From: Bacteroidia bacterium
GTDB lineage: Bacteria; Bacteroidota; Bacteroidia; SpSt-205
Assembly (NCBI GenBank): GCA_026003215.1
Contig: BPGV01000001.1
Span: forward strand, 25,570-89,569
DNA length: 64,000 bases
Reading direction: 5' to 3'
Part shown: positions 7,526 through 17,678 of the stretch, one piece after another
Position numbering within the stretch: position 1 is the first letter of the stretch
Layout: every line of letters starts with the position of its first letter
Notes under the pieces: generated by a model
Told to the model about the DNA's origin: nothing
What the model saw: the letters and a program-made list of their open reading frames with translations, nothing else
The model's database searches: none
Translations under genes and position numbers: made by a program

Positions 7526-7565
7526 GGCGGGGGGATAGCTTCCCCCCGCCACTTTTATGTAGTTT
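7526..7565 (+). terminator. Intrinsic terminator: 10-bp stem ggcgggggga/tccccccgcc, 5-nt loop, then acTTTTatgtagTTTT.
   Basis: Perfect inverted repeat plus U-tract, 19 nt after the stop of the 5777-7507 gene. Confidence 0.6.
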
Positions 7566-7571
7566 TGGGGG

Positions 7572-8945
7572 ATGGCATCGCTTTTTGTATGGCTACGCCG
7601 GCTGCGTGCTGTTGTAGAGCGCTTCCGCATACACCCCGAAATGGATAGCCCAGAGCGTATCCTGGAGGCTATCAGCCGCGATGTGACCTTCCGTGGGATA
7701 AACCTTTGGGTGCTCATCACTGCCACCTTGGTCGCTTCCGTCGGCCTGAATGTCAACTCCACCGCTGTCATCATCGGCGCAATGCTCATCTCGCCTTTGA
7801 TGGGCCCTATCATCGGCGTGGGCGTGAGCTTGGCTATTTATGATATTGCGCTCTTCCGCAAATCTCTGCGTAACCTCGTCGTGGCGGTATTTTTCAGCTT
7901 GGTGGCTAGTTCATTGTACTTCCTCCTCACCCCCCTCAAAGAAGCGGGTAGCGAACTTATCGCGCGTACCAAGCCTACCTTTTGGGACGTACTTATCGCC
8001 TTCTTTGGTGGGCTGTCAGGGGTGATCGCCGCGTTAGGCCGAGAAAAAAAAACCAACATAATCGCAGGCGTAGCGATTGCTACGGCGCTTATGCCGCCGC
8101 TTTGCACGGCGGGATATGGGGTAGGTACCGGCCAGTGGAGTTTTTTCATAGGGGCTTTTTACCTTTTCCTCATAAATGCGGTCTTTATTAGCGCCTCAGC
8201 TTATCTGACTTTTCAAGTCATACGTTTCCCTAACCGAGAGTTTGTAGATAAGTCCTACCAGCAGCGGATTCGGCGGCTTTTGGCGGTAGTAGGCCTTCTT
8301 ACCCTTTTGCCCAGTGTGTATATCGCCTATACCGTCGTGCAAGAAGCCATCCAAGAAGCCCGTGTGCGGCAGTTTGTGGAAAAAGCTTTTGAGGTCTTTC
8401 CCCTCACCAGCGTAGTAGAATACAAAAAAATAAGTGAGGGCGATACCGTACGGCTTCGAGTGGTCTTGGTAGGAGAACCTTTGGCTGAAAAGGATATTCA
8501 ATATCTTGCCCATGAGCTACATACTTCTTATCGCCTCCCGAAGTATCGCCTGGAAGTGGTGCAAGGAATCCTACCCGAAAAGCCTGAGCCTTCTCACCTC
8601 TTAGAGCTTGCCGAACGGAGTCACCAACAGGTGCGCACGCTCAGTGATAGTGTGTATAAACTCCAGCGGGCCTTAGAAGCTTGTCGTAAAGAAAAGGAAA
8701 CGCAAACTCAAGAACTGCTTCAAATAGCTCGAGAGGCACGCAGCCTTTTTCCTGAAATCCAGCGTTTAGGCTTCCAAAAAATGAGACTTTCGGACGGTAA
8801 GTCTTATAGCGGCGATACCGTATATGCGGTGTGGGTTGAAGTACCTTCTAAGAGAAAGTTTGCCGAGGGGGAGCGACTCCAAAAATGGCTCAGCGAGCGG
8901 CTCGGTGGAAAAAAAGTACAAGTATTCCTCCAGCCTACGCGATAA
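7572..8945 (+). CDS. DUF389-family (TIGR00341-like) integral membrane protein.
   Basis: Multi-TM N-terminal half with the conserved LISPLMGPIIG and ALMPPLCTAGYG segments of DUF389, followed by a coiled-coil-like soluble C-terminal half. Confidence 0.65.
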   Translation: MASLFVWLRRLRAVVERFRIHPEMDSPERILEAISRDVTFRGINLWVLITATLVASVGLNVNSTAVIIGAMLISPLMGPIIGVGVSLAIYDIALFRKSLRNLVVAVFFSLVASSLYFLLTPLKEAGSELIARTKPTFWDVLIAFFGGLSGVIAALGREKKTNIIAGVAIATALMPPLCTAGYGVGTGQWSFFIGAFYLFLINAVFISASAYLTFQVIRFPNREFVDKSYQQRIRRLLAVVGLLTLLPSVYIAYTVVQEAIQEARVRQFVEKAFEVFPLTSVVEYKKISEGDTVRLRVVLVGEPLAEKDIQYLAHELHTSYRLPKYRLEVVQGILPEKPEPSHLLELAERSHQQVRTLSDSVYKLQRALEACRKEKETQTQELLQIAREARSLFPEIQRLGFQKMRLSDGKSYSGDTVYAVWVEVPSKRKFAEGERLQKWLSERLGGKKVQVFLQPTR

Positions 8946-8967
8946 AGTCGTACCTTTGCAGCCCAAG

Positions 8968-11115
8968 ATGATCCCTAAAATAGCGACCCCAACGAATGGG
9001 GCAGGTGTAGCGCGTATAGCGCCGCATACCTTTGGTGAGCTTGTCTTCCATCGGGAAGTCATGCGGGAATATCTCTCGGAGACGGCGTTGGACGCCATAG
9101 CCCGGTGGGAAAAAGGCGAGCCTATCTCTGCTGACTTAGCGGACGAAGTGGCCAATGCCTTGCGCCAGTGGGCCATAGACCACGGAGCCACCCATTATAC
9201 GCATTGGTTCCACCCGCTTACAGGCCTTACAGCCGAGAAACACGAAAACTTTTTTGAAGCCGTAGGCGGCAAGGTTATAAGTGGCTTCAACGGAAGTGAG
9301 CTTTTGCAGCAAGAGCCCGATGCCTCGTCCTTTCCCAGTGGCGGGCTGCGCAGCACCTTTGAAGCCCGTGGGTACACGGCATGGGATCCTACTTCGCCGC
9401 CTTTTATTTATGGTCGTACCCTATGCATTCCCTCCGTATATATCTCGTATCACGGAGAAACTTTAGACTATAAGACTCCACTTCTTCGTTCTATTGAGGC
9501 GCTCAACCGTGCCGCGCAAAAGGTCGTTTCCCTCTTTTATCGTGGGGTCGAGCGGGTGTTCCCTACCTTGGGGATAGAGCAGGAGTTTTTCCTTATGGAT
9601 CAGGCGCTGTATGAGCGGCGCTTGGACCTTATGCTTACGGGGCGGACGCTTTTAGGGGCGCCTTCGCCGCGGGGCCAGCAAATGGAAGACCACTACTTTG
9701 GCGCTATACCCCAGCGGGTGTTGGCTTTCTTTGAGGAGCTGGAAGCGGAGGCGTGGCGATTGGGCATCCCCCTCAAAACCCGCCATAACGAAGTAGCCCC
9801 CGCCCAGTATGAATGTGCCCCCGTCTTTGAAGAACTCAATGTAGCGATTGACCACAACCAGCTCCTTATGGACCTTATCCAGCGCACGGCGCGCCGGCAT
9901 GGTCTGGTAGCTCTCCTGCATGAAAAGCCTTTCGCCGGCATCAACGGCTCCGGCAAGCACAATAACTGGTCCCTCGCCACCGATACCGGCCTCAACCTTC
10001 TCTCCCCAGGCAAAAGCGCCAAAGAAAACCTCCGCTTCTTTGCCCTGCTCAGTATAGTGCTGCGCGCTGTGTATCGCCACGCAGACCTACTGCGGGCTAC
10101 GATTGCTACCCCGGGCAACGAACACCGCCTGGGAGGCAACGAAGCGCCGCCTTCTATTTTGTCGGTCTTTTTAGGGAGTCAGGTTTCTAAAGCCATAGAA
10201 GCTTTGGAGAAATCCACGGAAATACCTAAGCTTGTTGAGAAAACGCCTATCTCTTTACTTATTCCTCGGCTGCCGGCGGTTTTGCGCGACAATACCGACC
10301 GCAATCGCACAGCGCCCTTTGCCTTCACAGGGAGTAAGTTTGAGTTTCGGGCGGTGGGGGCGTCGGCGCACTGTGCCCCAGCTATGATTGTGCTCAATGC
10401 GGCGGTGGCGGAGTCGTGTGAGCACTTTGCCACTCAGGTAGCCGAACTCCGCAAGAATGGGCTTAGCCGGGAGGCTGCCATCCTGACGACCATACGAGGC
10501 TTTCTTCAAGAGAGCCACTCTATCCGCTTTGATGGCAATAGTTATGACCCGAGCTGGCATGAAGAGGCCGCGCGTCGGGGCCTCTCCGTGTCTTTCTATA
10601 TCCCTTCGGTGTTGAAAGCTTATATAGCGCCCCAGACTATCTCCCTCTTTGAGAAGCTGGGCATTTTGCGGGAAGAGGAGCTCCATGCCCGCTATGAGGT
10701 GCGGCTGGAGCGGTATGTTAAGGCTTTGGGCATAGAGCTTCATACGCTGGTGGATATATTGCGGACGCAGGTGCTGCCGGCGGCTTTGCGTTATCAGGGA
10801 GAGGTGGCCCAGCTCTTGGCGGCGCCGGCGATGCAGGCGCTTGCTGCTATGGCCCCCGAAAAAACGCCCCAAGAAGCGCTATTTGAGGCCCTTCAGACCC
10901 ATATTCAAGCTCTGTGGGTCGGTCTCCAGCGGGCAGAGGCTGTCTGGCAAGAGGTACAAGCCCTTCCTTCGGCCCAAGCCCAAGCCGAAAAAGTCTATGC
11001 CGAGGTGCGGCCCCTCTTAGCGGAGCTGCGCCAGCATGCAGATGCCTTAGAGACCCTCCTCCCCGCAGACAAGTATCCCCTCCCGCGGTACGCAGATATG
11101 CTTTTTAGGTATTGA
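8968..11115 (+). CDS. glnN: Glutamine synthetase type III (GSIII).
   Basis: The 715-aa product has the GSIII N-terminal domain (HYTHWFHPLTGLTAEKHENFF) and the catalytic region (NEVAPAQYECAPVFEE...HEKPFAGINGSGKHNNWS). I chose the ATG at 8968 because the ORF-track start at 8824 overlaps the previous gene. Confidence 0.85.
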   Translation: MIPKIATPTNGAGVARIAPHTFGELVFHREVMREYLSETALDAIARWEKGEPISADLADEVANALRQWAIDHGATHYTHWFHPLTGLTAEKHENFFEAVGGKVISGFNGSELLQQEPDASSFPSGGLRSTFEARGYTAWDPTSPPFIYGRTLCIPSVYISYHGETLDYKTPLLRSIEALNRAAQKVVSLFYRGVERVFPTLGIEQEFFLMDQALYERRLDLMLTGRTLLGAPSPRGQQMEDHYFGAIPQRVLAFFEELEAEAWRLGIPLKTRHNEVAPAQYECAPVFEELNVAIDHNQLLMDLIQRTARRHGLVALLHEKPFAGINGSGKHNNWSLATDTGLNLLSPGKSAKENLRFFALLSIVLRAVYRHADLLRATIATPGNEHRLGGNEAPPSILSVFLGSQVSKAIEALEKSTEIPKLVEKTPISLLIPRLPAVLRDNTDRNRTAPFAFTGSKFEFRAVGASAHCAPAMIVLNAAVAESCEHFATQVAELRKNGLSREAAILTTIRGFLQESHSIRFDGNSYDPSWHEEAARRGLSVSFYIPSVLKAYIAPQTISLFEKLGILREEELHARYEVRLERYVKALGIELHTLVDILRTQVLPAALRYQGEVAQLLAAPAMQALAAMAPEKTPQEALFEALQTHIQALWVGLQRAEAVWQEVQALPSAQAQAEKVYAEVRPLLAELRQHADALETLLPADKYPLPRYADMLFRY

Positions 11116-11136
11116 GTATGGGCAAGCCTGCTCCCC

Positions 11137-11865
11137 GTGCGCGGGTGCCGGATACCCGGCGGGGTGAAGGTCCAGCTGGACAAGGTTCCGCCCTGGAACC
11201 CCGAGGAAGAGCTCAGATTGCGGGGGCAGCTTGCGCAGGTGGTCGGACCCGCTGTAGGTCCGCCGGTAGAGGGGGGAGAGGCTATCCAACGCTTGCTTTC
11301 CCTTCTCCAGCTTCTTGATCCCAAGGGGAAAATAGCCACAGTCGCCAGCTTATTTGAAGGCTTCTTGTGGAGCGTGGGAAGCGTCCATCGCCATAAAAAA
11401 GGCCACCTCCAACTCAACTGGGCACGCACCGAGTTTGCCCTTGAAGAAAAGCCCATCTCCGAAAAATGGGAAGATTTTTTAGATTACGTGTCCCGCATAA
11501 TAGAAGCGATCTCTCCGAGCTATTCCTTAGAAAAGCTGGAACGAGTCACGGTAGAATGGGTATATTATTTTCCAACAGAAGAATCCCCATTTACTAAGTT
11601 TCAGCCTTCCTTGATTAAAGAGCTGCCTAAGCCGCTTCGTTGGAGTTACGAAGTCTTAGCGGATCCTGACCGAATGGAGCGCCTGCTTGTATCTGTGCGG
11701 GATTTTTATGAAGCAGCCAGCCCGCCTTTTGGCCAACTCATGGCGGTCTATACAGGGCCCAAGGTGCCCATAAAGCACATAGGCGAGTGGATACACACAG
11801 CTCGGAATAGCGCACAAGAGCTTATAAATCGTATATTTGCTTCTGACTTCCCCTTGGCGCTATGA
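11137..11865 (+). CDS. Hypothetical protein A of the AT-rich cassette (up to 242 aa; real start uncertain).
   Basis: A long ORF whose 5' roughly 200 nt is GC-rich and gives a Gly/Pro/Arg-rich translation, so it is probably not coding. The remainder is AT-richer with a protein-like translation (...ISEKWEDFLDYVSRIIEAISPSYSLEKLERVTVEWVYYFPTEESPF...). In-frame TTG/GTG codons near 11290-11370 are alternative starts. The stop overlaps the next gene's ATG as ATGA. Confidence 0.45.
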   Translation: MRGCRIPGGVKVQLDKVPPWNPEEELRLRGQLAQVVGPAVGPPVEGGEAIQRLLSLLQLLDPKGKIATVASLFEGFLWSVGSVHRHKKGHLQLNWARTEFALEEKPISEKWEDFLDYVSRIIEAISPSYSLEKLERVTVEWVYYFPTEESPFTKFQPSLIKELPKPLRWSYEVLADPDRMERLLVSVRDFYEAASPPFGQLMAVYTGPKVPIKHIGEWIHTARNSAQELINRIFASDFPLAL

Positions 11866-12203
11866 TAGAGCTACTCTTATCCCAGGAAAGCTATGCCCAG
11901 CCTGGGTTTGATGAGAAATGGGAGGCTCAGTTAGTGGAGTATCCTGGCGTACGCTCCTTGGTTCGAGAGATATCCCATATAGTGGATAAATACTTTTCAC
12001 GGTCTCGGCCCCAGGTAGCTCTCAAAGTAGATGAAGAGGACGAGGAACCCACTTTGCTTTATACCATAAAGCGTGACCCAGCCATAGACAAGAATCAGTT
12101 TTGGGATCTTTTTGTAAAAGCAGATGATGAATATCTAAAACTTTTGCGGGAAAACTATAACAAATATCCTGACGGTCAGTATCTTATTTTTCGGTTAGGG
12201 TGA
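11862..12203 (+). CDS. Hypothetical protein B of the AT-rich cassette (113 aa, acidic).
   Basis: An AT-rich ORF translationally coupled to protein A. There is no recognisable motif, and no GSx...DxD nucleotidyltransferase signature. Confidence 0.5.
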   Translation: MIELLLSQESYAQPGFDEKWEAQLVEYPGVRSLVREISHIVDKYFSRSRPQVALKVDEEDEEPTLLYTIKRDPAIDKNQFWDLFVKADDEYLKLLRENYNKYPDGQYLIFRLG

Positions 12204-12228
12204 GGGAGGAATCGGGCTACTTTCTTTT

Positions 12229-12666
12229 ATGGGTTTTAGGTGGTCGGAGTTTGAGGAGGTAGCAAAAAAGTTGGAAAATATAGCGGAAGGAGATATAGAG
12301 TGGAAAGAAGGGGCCCTACGTTCAGCCATAGGACGTTTGTATTATGCTGCATTCAATCAGGTACGCGAGTGGGCGATACGGCGAGGATTTAGGGATCCTC
12401 GCTCAGGAGCTGTGCATGGTAACTTAAGGGACTTTGTAGCAAAGGAAGGCTATCGTGACATAGCTAAGTTATTGAAAGTCCTTCATGATAGCAGGAAAAA
12501 TGTGGATTATAGTATGGTTTTGGATAAAGATTCGGATCTAATGCTAAAAGAAGCCAAACGGAATTATGAGCTTATAGTGAAATGGCTCGGCTCCTTGTCA
12601 GAAAATATGCTGGAAAGCGAAGAAGGTTTGGACTCCTTCGTGGCTGCGGGCGATATCCCAGCGTAG
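12229..12666 (+). CDS. HEPN-like small protein C (145 aa), a candidate toxin/RNase component.
   Basis: Predicted all-alpha protein with ALRSAIGRLYYAAFNQVREWA followed by RDPRSGAVHGNL (R-x4-H, the HEPN signature spacing), then a second helix pair (DIAKLLKVLHDS...EAKRNYELIVKWL). The last 22 codons (12599-12666) are antisense to the 3' end of the Omp85 gene, so the ORF reads across the insertion junction. Confidence 0.5.
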   Translation: MGFRWSEFEEVAKKLENIAEGDIEWKEGALRSAIGRLYYAAFNQVREWAIRRGFRDPRSGAVHGNLRDFVAKEGYRDIAKLLKVLHDSRKNVDYSMVLDKDSDLMLKEAKRNYELIVKWLGSLSENMLESEEGLDSFVAAGDIPA

Positions 12667-14029
12667 GATAGTGCTTTGGTTCCATATCAAGCGCAGGCCT
12701 GCGCCGGGCGCGCCTATCCAGCCGGTGAAGGTAGGCTTGATTTGACGCAGGTAGTCCCACACCGTGCCCGCATCATAAAACGCTACAGTCCCTATAATCC
12801 AGTCTTGTTTTAGCAGGCGGAAACCCTACAGAGGGCTCCGCAGTTCGGCGTTGATTTGGGCGGTGGCGAGGGCTACGAAGCGGCTCTCGCGAAAGCCTCG
12901 CACCGAACGTGCCCCACCTAAGACCAAAATGCCTCCGGCTTCTGCCTGGCTGGAGAGGTCATACAGCTCAATCCAGTTGATGCGTTTGCCCCAGATGTAG
13001 CCGAAGGCTGCCAATCCCGCCAAGGTAAGGCGGCCCCAGCGCCCCCACCGCACCGGCGTATAAAAGCCCACCGATTGCACCCTAATCTTATTCATGCGGA
13101 AGTCTGCGCCCAGCCATGGCGCCTGCAGTTCATGGGAGTACTCCAAGAAAACCCCGCGTGTGGGGTCCGGCTCTAAATCGCGGGTGTCGTACATGACCAC
13201 CCAGGCCCAAATGCTGCTTATCCACCAGCGGCGGCTCTCTTCGTACCCTGTCACATGCAGCGCATCCCATATACCCGCTTGCCGATCTTTTTCCAGCTGG
13301 GTAGAACGATGTATCGCTTCTACCACTTGGCCTTCGGGGGATTTTACCCGCACTTTTTGACCGGCGTAACTGCGAAAACGCGTAAGGTCTATCTCATACC
13401 CTAAAAATACCCGCACTCGGCTCTCAGCCAAAAGCCTTTCAAAAGCCACATTGTACAGTTGCGACTCTAAAAAAATGCGGTTGTACTTAGCATCTGTATA
13501 AAGGACCCCTCCGCTGTCAAAAGGTATTTCTAAGGCTTCCTCATAGGGTTTTATCCGCGTAAAGGTTTGGGGTGGTGAGTTACCCCGGGCAGGAACGGTA
13601 AGTGCTTCAAAGAGCCGCTTGCGTCCCATCCCCCAATATTGCCCATCCGGGTCGCGAATAATCTCTACATTGGCCCGCATGCGATAAGGCTTATCCAAGA
13701 GAAAAGTAGCGTCATAGTTAGCGGAGAAGATATAGCGGGTATTTTCGAACAAAAACAGGTTAGCGTTTAAACGATGACGATAGGAGCTGTAAGCGAAAAA
13801 GGGGTCTTGACGGGTTTTGTTGAAGTAGATATACCCTTCGGCTCCTATGCCGAAGCCCCGAATAGGGTCCTATTCCCAGCGAGGCAGCCCTGTGGCGAAA
13901 GTTCCTTCGTGCTTTTGGGCTAACTCCGTCTCTGCCAGTTTTTTAGAGGGGTGGATGTAAAAAGGCAAGGGGGGAGGGAGAAAGCGACTGGGCCCATAGG
14001 ATTACACTGAACCCTATACCTAAGCGCAT
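12599..14029 (-). pseudogene. Omp85/BamA-family (surface antigen D15 beta-barrel, no POTRA) outer-membrane protein gene, disrupted by two in-frame TAG codons and one C-run frameshift.
   Basis: The signal peptide MRLGIGFSVILWAQ starts at 14029. A +1 shift is needed in the C6 run (plus-strand G6, 13966-13975). There are in-frame TAG codons at 13870-13872 and 12823-12825. Conserved barrel motifs are intact (GFGIGAEGYIYFN..., GGARSVRGFRESRF...NAELRSPL*GF...VAFYDAGTVW...) and the canonical C-terminal Phe (FAFQHIF*) is at 12599-12601. TAG terminates several confident genes here, so suppression or reassignment is unlikely. Confidence 0.7.
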
Positions 14030-14101
14030 GCCGCAAAGTACGGCTGGAGGGTGGAAGGAAATGCCGATGTATAAGGCACAAGGTTTGCTACTTTTGCGGA
14101 T

Positions 14102-14626
14102 ATGTTAAGGAGCCTAAGTAAGTATGCTTGGGGTTTACTCAGCCTGGCCCTCGTCTATGTGGGGGGGTGTAAGCGGGGCTCTTGTGAGGGCGTGGCTTGC
14201 CTGAATGGCGGCACTTGCCGCGGCGGTCGCTGTGAGTGTCCGCCCGGCTTCTCGGGGGGACGCTGCGAGGTCAAATGGACTGATAGCTGGACAGGTACCT
14301 ACACCGTAGATGACCGCTGCCAGGTCGTGGGACTCATTCCCCAGTACGAGGCCAGCGTATCCGCTTCCACCGTCTATCCCGATGTGATTTATTTTGAAGG
14401 CTTTGGGGATATCCACTGTCAGGGGCAGCGCTTGCGGGTAGAGGGACGGCTTACCAGTCCTACGACAGTGAGTATAGCTCGGCAGAGCAGCTGCGACCGC
14501 CGCTATAGCGTAGAAGGCTCCGGCACCTTAGACCCTACCAACCGCCGCCTCACTATCACTTACTACTACTGGGACTTTCAAACTGGCCTGCAAGACACCT
14601 GTACGGCGGTGTGGGTGCGGTACTGA
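14102..14626 (+). CDS. Lipoprotein with an EGF-like domain.
   Basis: Lipoprotein signal and lipobox LSLALVYVGGC. It is followed immediately by CEGVACLNGGTCRGGRCECPPGFSGGRCE, the canonical six-Cys EGF spacing C-x-C-x5-G-x-C-x-C-x2-GF-x-G-x2-C. Confidence 0.7.
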   Translation: MLRSLSKYAWGLLSLALVYVGGCKRGSCEGVACLNGGTCRGGRCECPPGFSGGRCEVKWTDSWTGTYTVDDRCQVVGLIPQYEASVSASTVYPDVIYFEGFGDIHCQGQRLRVEGRLTSPTTVSIARQSSCDRRYSVEGSGTLDPTNRRLTITYYYWDFQTGLQDTCTAVWVRY

Positions 14627-14723
14627 GACCACTCGGCCCGCTCTTTCTACGACTTAGCCTGTGTAGGCAACCGTTCAAGCTTGAACTTCGGATTTAAGAA
14701 AAGGAGGTTTGTACCTTTGGTAC

Positions 14724-17678
14724 ATGACAGGCAAGATGCGCATAGGGCTGCTTGTACTCGGTGTAAGCCTCCTGACGGCCCAGACTATCTTTTACTCGCA
14801 GGACTTCAATAGCGGGGTGCCGGCCGACTGGAGCCTCAATACCAGCGATATGGGCAGTGTCACAAACGGCTACAACTACTGGACCGTCGGCGCCGATTAT
14901 AATACAAGCGTGTCTCCTAATCCTTTTGAGGTTCCGTGTTCATTCTTGGGGTGTGTGCCAGCGACAGTTGTCCCTGTTATTCCCAACCAGCCGGCGGCTA
15001 TCCCCGGCGCGCCTAATTCTCCTTTTCTGCATATTGCTTATGACGGGAGTTATAGCAGTAGTGCGGGCTGTATGGCTCCAAATGTCGTTACTACTTCTTT
15101 TCTCGCAGCGGATGGGGTATGTGCCTTAGCCCAAAACTACTTTGCTCGGCTGAATACCCCTATCCCTATTCCTGCGGGCACAGCGCCGGTCAAACTCAGC
15201 TTTTTCTGGCTATGCAAAGGCGGCCCTGCCTGGTACGGGGAAGTGCTGTATGGTACCGGACCCACCGTGCCCACCACTTGGTTTAGCTTGACCTCCAGCG
15301 TGACGGGAACCAACGTCTTGAACAACCATGATGGTCAGTGGTATGCCGACACGATTACGCTGCCAATTACGCGGCCGGCGCAGCTCTGGATAGCCTTCCG
15401 CTTCGTAAATAATAATGGGACCACGGGGGGAGATCCGCCCTTAGCGGTGGATATGATTCGGGTCTTTGATGTCCCGGTGGCTACGCCTACCCTTACCTTA
15501 GACAATGCCACCCCTAACCCAGTGTGTGCGGGCAATACCCTAACTGTCTCCTACACAGCGCAAAACTTCCCCACTGGCACCACCTACACTGCTCAGCTCC
15601 TCAATGCCAGCAATACGGTAGTAGCGTCCGCCTCGGGTTCCAGTCCTATTGCCCTGACTATCCCGGCCACCTTGCCCAGTGGTACCTACACCCTCCGAGT
15701 GCAAGCGAATACTACCCCCCCGACCAATAGCAATACCGTCCCTATCACCGTTGTGAATGTACAATCCCTCTCCTGCTCTGCAAACCCCAATCCCGCTCAG
15801 GTGGGTGCCGCCGTCTCCTTATCTCTCAACGGAACCAATCTCCCCAGCGGGCCTTTTAATATCCAGATGAACCCCGGCGATGGCAGCCCTCCCCAATCTC
15901 AAGCCAACGTGGCTGCCTTGCCCGTGACCTTCAGCCACACCTACACCGCCGCAGGGACCTATACCGTGACCTTTACGATTACGCATCCCGCTTCGGGGTG
16001 TAGTGGCACCTGTACGGTACCGGTGACCGTACAGCCCCCCACCACGAATACGATTGATTTGGTGAGTGTGACCCCGTCGCCTGTCTGTGCAGGTAATACT
16101 ATCACGGTGACCTTCACGCCCTCAGGCACCTATAACTCGGGCAATCTCTTTCGGGTGCAGCTTTCGGATGCGACGGGTTCCTTTGCTGCACCCCAAAATA
16201 TCGGGGTCGGGGCCACCAGCCCTATCACAGCCACTATCCCTCCTACGACGCCTTCAGGCACCTATGGGGTTCGTGTGGTGAGTACCTCGCCGGCAGTGGT
16301 GAGCGATACCCTGAGTGTGGATGTTGTTAATCTCAGTGGTCTTACGTGTTCGTATAACCCTACACCGGCGTTGGTGGGTACAGCTACTACGCTCACGATA
16401 GGGGGGAGTGGCTTACCCAGCGGGCCTTTTGATGTCCGTGTGGATGTGGATGGGGATGCTACGGCGGACTATACGCAAAATGGGGTGGCGCTTCCGTATA
16501 GCTTTACCCATACCTATACGGCAGGGGGAACCTACAACGTGACTTTTACGGTGACGCATCCTGCTTCCGGCTGCACGGGCACCTGTAATATGACGGTGCA
16601 GGTACAAGGGCAAGGCCTCTCCGCTACCAATCTGACCCCGGATACCCTCTGTGCGGGCGAATCTTTCACGGTGGATTATACCAGTGTAGGGATAACCTTT
16701 GCAGCGGGCAATACTTTTACGGTGGAGGCACGAGATGGGAGCGGGAACTTGGTGTTTAGCTGTCCTACGGCGAGTACAGCGACGAGTGGTACCTTAAGCT
16801 GTACGGTACCGGCGGGCACGCCTCCCGGCAGCTATACCGTGCAGGTGGTGAGTAGCAATCCTGCTTACACCAGTGGCAGTTTGAGCGTAGGGGTGAGTGC
16901 GCCGCCGGTGGCGGACTTTGCCCCTGATGCTAACCTGCGCTTCTGCGTAGGGACCCCTATCCGTTTTACCAACCGTTCTCAGAATGCCCTCTCTGTGCAG
17001 TGGGACTTTGGCGATGGCACCACGAGTACCAGCCTCAATCCTACCCACACCTATACCCAGCCGGGCACTTACACGGTGACGCTGACGGCCTCGGTGAGTC
17101 CGACTTGTACAGACCAAATCCAGCGGACGGTAGAGATACTTCCGCTGCCGCAAGCTTCCTTTACGGTGCAGCCACCTACGCTGACACTGCCCGAGCAAAC
17201 CACCGTCACCCTCACCAATACTTCTACGGGAGCCGCTACCTATCAGTGGGACTTCGGAAACGGCCAAACCAGCACTGCCCCGAATCCTACCGCTACCTAT
17301 AACCAAGAAGGGGACTACACTATTACCCTCACGGCTATTTCCGCCGACGGGTGTAGAGATACGGCGCAGTACCTCCTCGTCGTGCGCTACGCGCAATCCT
17401 TAGCTATCCCGAACGCCTTTACCCCTAATAGCGATGGCATCAACGATCGATTTGTGATACGCTATGTAGGGATGGAACGCTTGCAGGTGCGGCTCTATGA
17501 CCGCTGGGGAAATGAAATCTTTTCTCAGCAGCAGGCCGCGCCTGCGGGCACCATAGAGTGGGATGGCACGCGTAATGGCCAGCCCGCACCCGAAGGGGTG
17601 TATACCGGCCTGGTGGAGGGGCGCACGATAGACGGAAAAGAGGTTCGCAAGGGCTTTACGGTGACCCTCCTGCGCTGA
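14724..17678 (+). CDS. Large secreted T9SS type-B substrate with tandem Ig-like/PKD repeats and a gliding-motility-associated C-terminal domain (CHU_C).
   Basis: Signal peptide MTGKMRIGLLVLGVSLLTAQ. There are three roughly 180-aa divergent repeats, each ending in a PKD-like motif (SFSHTYTAAGTYTVTFTITHPASGCSGTC; WDFGDGTTSTSLNPTHTYTQPGTYTVTLTA; YQWDFGNGQTSTAPNPTATYNQEGDYTITLTA). The C-terminus IPNAFTPNSDGINDRFVIRYVGMERLQVRLYDRWGNEIF...GKEVRKGFTVTLLR is a T9SS type-B sorting domain. Confidence 0.85.
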   Translation: MTGKMRIGLLVLGVSLLTAQTIFYSQDFNSGVPADWSLNTSDMGSVTNGYNYWTVGADYNTSVSPNPFEVPCSFLGCVPATVVPVIPNQPAAIPGAPNSPFLHIAYDGSYSSSAGCMAPNVVTTSFLAADGVCALAQNYFARLNTPIPIPAGTAPVKLSFFWLCKGGPAWYGEVLYGTGPTVPTTWFSLTSSVTGTNVLNNHDGQWYADTITLPITRPAQLWIAFRFVNNNGTTGGDPPLAVDMIRVFDVPVATPTLTLDNATPNPVCAGNTLTVSYTAQNFPTGTTYTAQLLNASNTVVASASGSSPIALTIPATLPSGTYTLRVQANTTPPTNSNTVPITVVNVQSLSCSANPNPAQVGAAVSLSLNGTNLPSGPFNIQMNPGDGSPPQSQANVAALPVTFSHTYTAAGTYTVTFTITHPASGCSGTCTVPVTVQPPTTNTIDLVSVTPSPVCAGNTITVTFTPSGTYNSGNLFRVQLSDATGSFAAPQNIGVGATSPITATIPPTTPSGTYGVRVVSTSPAVVSDTLSVDVVNLSGLTCSYNPTPALVGTATTLTIGGSGLPSGPFDVRVDVDGDATADYTQNGVALPYSFTHTYTAGGTYNVTFTVTHPASGCTGTCNMTVQVQGQGLSATNLTPDTLCAGESFTVDYTSVGITFAAGNTFTVEARDGSGNLVFSCPTASTATSGTLSCTVPAGTPPGSYTVQVVSSNPAYTSGSLSVGVSAPPVADFAPDANLRFCVGTPIRFTNRSQNALSVQWDFGDGTTSTSLNPTHTYTQPGTYTVTLTASVSPTCTDQIQRTVEILPLPQASFTVQPPTLTLPEQTTVTLTNTSTGAATYQWDFGNGQTSTAPNPTATYNQEGDYTITLTAISADGCRDTAQYLLVVRYAQSLAIPNAFTPNSDGINDRFVIRYVGMERLQVRLYDRWGNEIFSQQQAAPAGTIEWDGTRNGQPAPEGVYTGLVEGRTIDGKEVRKGFTVTLLR

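Follow-up and report, generated by a model that had tools for sequence, protein, structure and literature searches.

Many immune and addiction systems, among them Cas13, Csm6, HepT, RnlA and retron IX, use HEPN ribonucleases (RNases) as their effectors, and these systems differ informatively in how the RNase is restrained and in what releases it. Here we analyse a cassette of three co-directional genes, termed A, B and C, that follows the glutamine synthetase gene glnN in a stretch of 64,000 nucleotides (the window; contig BPGV01000001.1) from a hot-spring Bacteroidia metagenome-assembled genome (MAG). The proteins of the trio carry the source names KatS3mg025_0040, N3A68_07165 and N3A68_07170. 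C is a HEPN protein, the B-C pair and the whole trio recur in other hosts, and the site occupied by the cassette is polymorphic. The module is best described as one of the HEPN toxin-antitoxin (TA) or abortive-infection type with partners other than MNT nucleotidyltransferases, uncatalogued in the libraries searched. In our judgement it is somewhat on the probable side that the cassette is an accessory, horizontally exchanged HEPN module with B-C as its core, acting in a TA- or abortive-infection-like manner with C as the RNase, B as its neutraliser and A as a regulator.

The HepT-MntA systems of type VII (Shewanella SO_3166/SO_3165 and the Aphanizomenon HEPN/MNT system) have a nucleotidyltransferase as partner, whereas none is present here. 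A first-pass annotation of the window had likewise set A and B apart from MNT proteins, and an MNT partner was ruled out since neither A, B nor their alleles have an NTP_transf match in Pfam, NCBIfam or PADLOC or a GS...DxD motif. Neutralisation of C by AMPylation is therefore not expected. In addition, C is without the Rx4H-x-Y motif of HepT, and two genes lie upstream of it instead of one.

Type IX retrons (Retron-Kva2 and Retron-Yin1) encode HEPN proteins that, like C, combine a His after helix 2/3 with an Arg in R-x3-D-Y on helix 4. In these retrons the HEPN protein is kept inactive by a partner protein of ~245 aa with a WH/KH-HTH architecture, and the HEPN gene comes first, unlike in the present cassette. 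Neither A nor B has detectable similarity to the retron models or to PDB chains including the retron WH protein. A type IX retron was ruled out at the locus, with no reverse transcriptase or noncoding RNA adjoining the cassette and no match in an Rfam search.

UPF0332/PF05168 proteins (AF_0298, 2hsb; TM0613, 1o3u; TTHA0636, 1wwp; and 9xbd) are like C in length and fold and share with it the pattern (S/G)R-x-YYA-x-F ... (S)H ... R-x3-D-Y. The classical members are typically paired with MNT, whereas C is more divergent and has an extra tail of 22 residues. The anti-T4 abortive-infection systems RnlA-RnlB and LsoA-LsoB follow the same concept as proposed here, with a HEPN RNase bound directly, and thereby kept inactive, by a small unrelated protein from an adjacent gene (PMC3710099); however, RnlA and LsoA are large multidomain proteins with the antitoxin gene downstream, and no sequence similarity to B is seen. 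As the first-pass annotation had anticipated, the trio is absent as a named system from PADLOC, Pfam and PHROGs. The locus would accordingly couple a UPF0332-type HEPN protein with a putative retron-IX-like His/Arg site to a small unnamed partner, and not to an MNT protein or a retron. The HEPN protein itself is familiar, and it is the partner families, the link of A to the family TIGR04255 and the three-state locus that provide new leads.

Gene C and its putative RNase site

Profile matches and a structural model place C in the UPF0332/PF05168 type of HEPN proteins. The HEPN identity, proposed already in the first-pass annotation, is borne out by a fold search, by profile matches below threshold and by homology to HEPN proteins that pass the Pfam threshold. 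C and its alleles match phrog_5176 and the PADLOC model HEPN_IX (E 7.6e-5, 2.8e-6 and 4.3e-7), the only named defence model matched. Relative to the Pfam HEPN gathering score of 22 bits, C of a sister species reaches 17 bits with full-length coverage, and a homologue from a Thermus brockianus plasmid (T_C) scores above the threshold with 27.4 bits; T_C is homologous to C with an hhalign probability of 98.6 and E 5.6e-16. Homologues from Gloeothece, labelled "HEPN domain-containing" at NCBI, gave 72 and 67 bits against the C profile, and the JGI label for C is UPF0332. The profile of the C family also matches two HEPN proteins in the PDB, 9xbd_A and the HEPN protein of Retron-Kva2 (36ht_I). The AlphaFold2 (AF2) model of C shows a bundle of helices followed by a disordered tail, in line with the four- to five-helix up-down bundle of the HEPN fold, and HEPN proteins made up nine of the ten top Foldseek matches obtained with this model.

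Across five homologues with 30-66% identity, residues R31, A33, R36, Y38, Y39, A40, H63, L85, R89, D93 and Y94 of C are invariant. The first-pass annotation had pointed to RSGAVH as an R-x4-H dyad. Both GRLYYAAF and RSGAVH are indeed present and the His (H63) is invariant, but the Arg (R58) is T, K or Y in homologues, and the invariant Arg of C is R89, in R-K-N-V-D-Y. In the type IX Retron-Kva2 HEPN protein, H64 on helix 3 and R122 (in V-R-G-I-V-D-Y) on helix 4 are needed for RNase activity, toxicity and defence (bioRxiv 10.64898/2026.07.14.738597), and type IX retron HEPN proteins have a composite site across the dimer and cleave tRNA and rRNA (2026 preprints, including bioRxiv 10.64898/2026.07.14.738597). 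A profile alignment places R122-D126-Y127 of Retron-Kva2 on R89-D93-Y94 of C. H63 and R89-x3-D93-Y94 of C represent the non-canonical arrangement for which catalysis has been shown in these retron RNases. The same variant was noted for the group comprising 2hsb, 1o3u and 1wwp, where D replaces H in the motif and a conserved H is located elsewhere (Anantharaman et al. 2013, PMC3710099).

The same residues bear on the possibility that C is a non-catalytic HEPN protein and that the three proteins assemble into a complex with a regulatory or a nucleotide- or RNA-binding role and no toxin activity, with C for example as an adaptor like that in nucleotidyltransferase-fused HEPN proteins. We regard this as improbable: although the His of the canonical Rx4-6H motif is replaced in C (R89-x3-D93-Y94), H63, R89, D93 and Y94 are invariant across the homologues described above and type IX retron HEPN proteins use the corresponding His/Arg pair for catalysis. 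Inactive HEPN versions have been described (Anantharaman et al. 2013, PMC3710099), and C as a whole, tail included, is not basic (isoelectric point, pI, 5.5), but its distribution on plasmids and prophages, together with the presence/absence polymorphism of the cassette, is a better fit to a selfish or defensive module.

Partner genes on mobile DNA and a proposed mechanism

By profile comparisons, B is a member of an unnamed family of ~100-120-aa proteins that are always encoded immediately upstream of C-like HEPN genes. The HMMER score of B against the Thermus partner, 10.6 bits, lies in the extreme tail of ~470 scored shuffles (maximum 11.6, 95th percentile 2.1), and the hhalign comparison of the B profile with the Thermus and provirus partners scored 27.7 (P 4.7e-4), a value to which 150 shuffles came no closer than 17.9. 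The Gloeothece partners scored 24.0 and 21.4 bits against a five-sequence B profile (hhalign 36.2, P 9e-6, shuffle maximum 17.6). B gave no match in Pfam, NCBIfam, PADLOC, PHROGs or the PDB, and no A-like or B-like genes were found on the viral contigs searched.

A tblastn search of C-like proteins against phage and plasmid collections gave a few plasmid matches and no match in the phage collection. Plasmid pTB1 of T. brockianus carries a trio composed of a 246-aa TIGR04255 protein (150.9 bits), a 147-aa protein and a 130-aa HEPN protein, the last two encoded by overlapping genes, and this trio adjoins VapBC, a DNA methylase and cas6. The same trio is present in the provirus IMGVR_UViG_2645728042_000003, where the first gene matches TIGR04255 at 85 bits. 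In two Gloeothece plasmids only the pair is present, and the gene that overlaps the one for HEPN encodes a protein of 118 or 119 aa. The TIGR04255-type first gene is frequent but optional. The B and C genes overlap or abut in Thermus, Gloeothece, the provirus and the divergent allele of the present locus (contig L089, see below), and are 25 nt apart in the window, where A and B are joined by an ATGA overlap; both the overlap and the gap were read straight from the sequence and agree with the first-pass annotation. Taken together, B and C are two small, co-directional and adjacent genes, recurrent on mobile DNA and strain-variable, as in type II-like TA systems.

The AT-richness of the cassette, noted at first pass, is real. 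The G+C (GC) content is 43.3% in B and 45.0% in C, versus 56.2% in glnN and 55.3% in the whole window, and in each of the three hosts the trio has a lower GC content than the DNA around it (GC 0.47-0.48 within a locus of 0.62 in Thermus, and 0.37-0.44 within 0.48 in the provirus). Gene A has 53.1% GC overall, with ~62% over its first ~180 nt and ~47-48% thereafter. GC at third codon positions (GC3) is 0.62-0.67 in host genes, 0.70 in A codons 1-70, 0.50 in the remainder of A, 0.43 in B and 0.41 in C. The first 70 codons of A are hence host-like in GC3, unlike the rest of the cassette.

Public annotation gives A as a 242-aa protein starting at GTG 11137 instead of one of 248 aa, owing to a frameshift near codon 15. 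In an alignment with six contigs of the same species (99.6% identical to the window) and with the sister species (~78% across the region), all of these have GGG at the position where the window has GGGG (11161-11164). Without the extra G, A extends from ATG 11118, located 2 nt beyond the glnN TGA, over 248 aa, which is also the length given by gene callers on all those contigs. The extra G would reflect miscounting of the homopolymer in the assembly or a frameshift particular to the strain. The first-pass annotation had placed the true start of A at a TTG or GTG near 11290-11370, which is contradicted by an ATG equivalent to that at 11118 in the six contigs and in the sister species. Moreover, codons 1-70 are the most constrained part of A, with a ratio of nonsynonymous to synonymous substitution rates (dN/dS) of 0.08 compared with 0.166 for the remainder, and they are conserved in the divergent allele, in which A is 41% identical; the internal start is therefore wrong. 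The same constraint and conservation, and the alignment of this part to the N-terminus of TIGR04255, also ruled out the idea that the GC-rich 5' part of A was captured from a native spacer.

A word-indexed protein search found homologues of A, B and C only within this lineage. An exhaustive HMMER search with A against 1.84 billion representative proteins gave P0003 and P0006 as the only true relatives; beyond the word-indexed set it added P0006 and a junk repeat protein, P0007. The first-pass annotation had been unable to name a family for A or B, a statement that needs revision for B, as a member of a recurrent partner family, and for A, as a probable remote relative of TIGR04255. An hhalign comparison of the A profile with a 12-sequence TIGR04255 profile gave a score of 31.5 (P 6.5e-4), and all controls were below this value (reversed 13.7; maximum 19.9 with column shuffles and 27.3 with block shuffles, 200 shuffles). 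The core match aligns A 90-148 with TIGR04255 77-134, and a greedy alignment runs colinearly from end to end. The two are also alike in size, 246-269 aa for TIGR04255 and 248 aa for A, and in being encoded by the first gene of a trio that ends in a C-like HEPN gene. We rate it as fairly likely that A is a remote TIGR04255-like protein. The NCBIfam model of TIGR04255 (sporadTIGR04255; cutoff 30 bits) gave no match at E<=10 for A of the window, P0004 or P0006; no similarity was seen when A and B were compared as possible duplicated domains; and neither a solved TIGR04255 structure nor a mention of the family in the literature searched was found.

Other upstream partners of C-like HEPN genes were also seen. 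In a Mu-like phage the partner is a protein of 260 aa, and in a streptococcal-type prophage DUF6941 and a 139-aa protein take this place. B has no similarity to the latter 139-aa protein, and DUF6941, the 139-aa protein and HEPN therefore make up a different partner set. Elsewhere, TIGR04255 genes precede genes of HTH regulators and HEAT-like proteins. Since both C-like HEPN genes and TIGR04255 genes occur with varied partners, the components are modular.

Several individual loci illustrate this variety. On plasmids and IMG/VR contigs (L096, L097, L101-L110), bona fide TIGR04255 genes are regularly followed by varying partners, and at the gene junctions the stop and start codons often overlap. 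In actinobacterial elements an HTH regulator and a ~250-aa protein are encoded there, and in Crinalium a HEAT-like and a 171-aa protein. These arrangements suggest that TIGR04255 is a modular family. In the streptococcal-type prophage (contigs L090-L093), the gene of a 141-aa C-like HEPN protein (phrog_5176) is located at the cargo end, between the lysin gene and lepA, behind those of DUF6941 and of the unrelated 139-aa protein; the genes overlap, and the HEPN protein is of the same clade as C. In IMGVR_UViG_2639763060_000004 (L099, 3139-4276) a gene for a 117-aa C-like HEPN protein, scoring 46.6 bits to the C profile, comes directly after that of a 260-aa helical protein; it sits moron-like among open reading frames (ORFs) that by eye resemble phage virion-assembly genes.

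In the mechanism that we propose, C would, by analogy with the type IX retron HEPN proteins, dimerise and form an RNase site from H63 and R89 (R-x3-D-Y), and B would bind and neutralise C as a protein antitoxin in a type II-like manner. Released C would cleave cellular RNA, that is tRNA or rRNA, and thereby halt growth. A would be an optional third component, most likely a regulator or sensor that times the release of C. The analysis establishes that the genes are real, that C is a HEPN protein, that the pair and the trio recur and that the locus is polymorphic, while an RNase toxin activity of C, its restraint by B, the part played by A and any action in addiction, abortive infection or against phages are inferences. 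The module resides on plasmids and prophages elsewhere and would here have become lodged between glnN and a dead Omp85 gene. The B-C core, which travels on plasmids and prophages of other phyla, is probably a TA or phage-defence module of a new type. If confirmed, it would provide a function for two uncharacterised protein families and a new neutralisation mechanism for HEPN toxins.

A bolder version of this reading, which we put forward tentatively and hold to be rather unlikely as a whole, is that B-C represents an undescribed HEPN TA or abortive-infection family with a new protein neutraliser and that TIGR04255 proteins, including A, are modular sensors or regulators which bacteria and mobile elements join to varied effector pairs, here the HEPN pair and elsewhere pairs with HTH or HEAT-like proteins. 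If this were true, TIGR04255 would mark out an entire class of conflict systems that has so far gone unrecognised, and the two divergent alleles and the null allele at one site would reflect frequency-dependent phage selection in hot-spring populations.

A number of observations weigh against the toxin or defence reading. C of the window is below the Pfam HEPN threshold (no match at E<=1), and confidence in its structural model is no more than moderate (pLDDT 62). At its last core helix C lacks the canonical Rx4-6H motif and has R89-K-N-V-D93-Y94 without a His, and some HEPN domains of the type of C are thought to be non-catalytic. A and B have no recognisable fold or motif, the AF2 model of A is unusable (pLDDT 38), and neither protein matches a PADLOC defence model; more widely, A-like, B-like and TIGR04255 proteins matched none of the PADLOC models. 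The link of A to TIGR04255 is the single profile-profile score reported above, and HMMER finds nothing. Furthermore, A is frameshifted in this window, which may put the intactness of the module here in doubt, and the neighbourhood consists of housekeeping genes and is not a defence island.

One chromosomal site with three allelic states

Three states of the locus occur in near-identical backgrounds, i.e. the cassette of the window, a divergent allele and a deletion. Two short contigs from one sequencing run (DRR290133), L008 and L089, both span exactly window positions 11086-12744. L008 has the window-type cassette. L089 shares its first 30 nt (to the glnN stop) and its last 54 nt (from 12691) with the window, and between them encodes A', B' and C' with 41%, 36% and 38% identity to the respective window proteins; A' starts 6 nt after the glnN stop. 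The right edge of this swap coincides with a GC-rich perfect palindrome at 12691-12704, GCGCAGGCCTGCGC, which measures 14 nt in the window and 16 nt in L089 and precedes GGCGCGCC; the palindrome is within the Omp85 reading frame.

The third state is represented by the cassette-less contig L094 (Logan DRR082460), in which glnN is 99.3% identical to that of the window up to 11105. After glnN follow ~90 nt that align to A codons 1-31 with a score of 39, compared with 18 ± 3 (maximum 29) in 300 shuffles. L094 joins the window again at 12589, 9 nt before the Omp85 stop codon (12598-12600), and is 90.6% identical downstream. Over window positions 7542-16006 it is a mosaic, with 99.3% identity in glnN and upstream and 90.6% in all that lies past the glnN stop, and the last four codons of glnN differ synonymously (TTC CGC TAC TAA in L094, TTT AGG TAT TGA in the window). 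The mosaic identity and the switched terminal codons therefore indicate a recombination breakpoint at the glnN 3' end. We read L094 as a probable deletion derivative on a recombinant background, with the ~90-nt spacer as a decayed remnant of A. A search of metagenome contigs with the glnN 3' end for further alleles gave zero matches.

In the sister species the cassette is found at the same place, with A 82-83%, B ~48% and C 65-66% identical. In nine related genomes, with GlnN 65-79% identical, glnN is followed by unrelated convergent genes, and none of A, B, C, the Omp85 gene or the downstream gene of a 174-aa protein is present. The cassette is hence conserved in one sister species and not beyond, so that the hypothesis of the first-pass annotation, which would fail if the three genes kept their composition and context across the clade, was not refuted. 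The null and divergent alleles at the same site, together with the absence from these relatives, make the cassette accessory and exchangeable. If confirmed, the locus would exemplify a single chromosomal site that, among closely related hot-spring bacteria, is occupied by either of two strongly divergent alleles of such a module or by a null allele.

All three genes are real genes under purifying selection. In comparison with the sister species, dN/dS and the synonymous rate (dS) were 0.135 and 0.73 for A, 0.216 and 1.84 for B, and 0.247 and 1.03 for C, versus 0.054 and 0.45 for glnN and 0.154 and 0.33 for the downstream 174-aa gene. The dS of the cassette, 0.73-1.84, is thus two to five times the 0.33-0.45 of the flanking genes (window 11118-12597 versus the sister-species contig L001), as would be expected for alleles that are older than the species split or were exchanged between lineages; weak codon constraint is an alternative candidate for the raised dS.

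Between-species dN/dS values of 0.13-0.25 also speak against the view that the module is non-functional in this genome, a decaying remnant heading for loss like its Omp85 neighbour. Such decay, which we consider improbable, would be in line with the window-specific +1 frameshift in A, with the deletion allele in a related strain and with the adjacent Omp85 pseudogene, the lesions of which differ between strains. However, six further contigs of the species have an undamaged A, B and C carry no lesion, and the extra G, as part of a homopolymer run, could stem from the assembly, with the product from GTG 11137 losing only ~15 residues.

A scan of the locus gave no promoter or terminator signal above chance, nor were flanking direct or inverted repeats (att-like sites) found above chance. 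From the gene layout, the cassette is probably co-transcribed with glnN; since A abuts glnN, with 2 nt between them, its expression here probably depends on glnN transcription. That the cassette would be a lineage-specific accessory of nitrogen metabolism, co-transcribed with glnN and acting on glutamine synthetase or on translation under nitrogen limitation, is nevertheless very unlikely, since the tight spacing in every allele and in both species (2 nt, or 6 nt in L089, with no room for a promoter) and the lack of promoter and terminator signals are set against a strain with 99.3% identical glnN and nine related genomes that do without the cassette, homologues of the B-C pair and of the trio that are located on plasmids and a provirus and have no glutamine synthetase in their vicinity, and no similarity to known glutamine synthetase regulators in Pfam or NCBIfam.

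Coordinates, the C tail and flanking genes

The three co-directional ORFs that the first-pass annotation had reported at 11.1-12.7 kb were confirmed in their coordinates, with A (from GTG) at 11137-11865, B at 11862-12203 and C at 12229-12666. These and the surrounding features are collected in Table 1.

Table 1. Features of the cassette locus and its flanks (positions refer to the window).
Feature	Position	Strand	Remarks
Gene A	11118..11865	+	248 aa from ATG 11118; annotated 242-aa form is GTG 11137-11865
GGGG run	11161..11164	+	GGG in all other contigs compared; window-specific +1 frameshift in A
Gene B	11862..12203	+	113 aa, acidic, pI 4.7; candidate antitoxin/neutraliser
Gene C, HEPN core (residues 1-123)	12229..12597	+	UPF0332/PF05168 type; predicted RNase effector
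C tail, 22 acidic residues and stop	12598..12666	+	overlaps, in antisense, the final 22 Omp85 codons and the Omp85 stop
Stretch swapped in divergent allele L089	11116..12690	strandless	flanks identical up to 11115 and from 12691
Stretch absent from allele L094 (approximate)	11212..12588	strandless	decayed remnant of A codons 1-31 retained
Omp85-family pseudogene	12598..13752	-	convergent with C; in-frame TAG 12826-12828
glnN, type III glutamine synthetase	8824..11115	+	conserved left flank; A starts 2 nt past its stop

The last 69 nt of C are antisense to the 3' end of the Omp85 gene, the frame of which ends in ...FAFQHIF*. The proposal of the first-pass annotation that this tail arose at the junction is supported, the same DNA being the plain Omp85 3' end in the cassette-less L094. 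The tail is missing from the homologues of L089, Thermus, Gloeothece and the provirus, residues 125-145 have pLDDT values below 50 (disordered), and the tail shows low divergence with a dN/dS of ~0.7. By these sequence and model features it is not part of the HEPN domain.

The Omp85 gene itself is decayed, in agreement with the first-pass annotation, with the in-frame TAG at a position where a relative has Tyr. The lesions differ by strain: L004, an NCBI MAG, has another truncation, the sister species (L001) has a deletion of ~1 kb, and in the L089 allele the last ~30 Omp85 codons are replaced. With 191 bits the gene falls slightly short of the NCBIfam NF047779 cutoff of 200; it also matches Pfam Omp85, with the N-terminal ~60 residues of the family model unmatched.

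The surroundings of the cassette in this genome comprise glnN, the Omp85 pseudogene, a lipoprotein of 174 aa and a PKD/CHU_C protein. For the 174-aa protein (14102-14626), predicted to be a lipoprotein, Pfam hEGF gives a weak, sub-threshold EGF-like match (E 1.5e-4). It is conserved beside the locus, with 90% identity in the sister species, and its gene is followed by that of the PKD/CHU_C protein of ~985 aa, a type IX secretion cargo.

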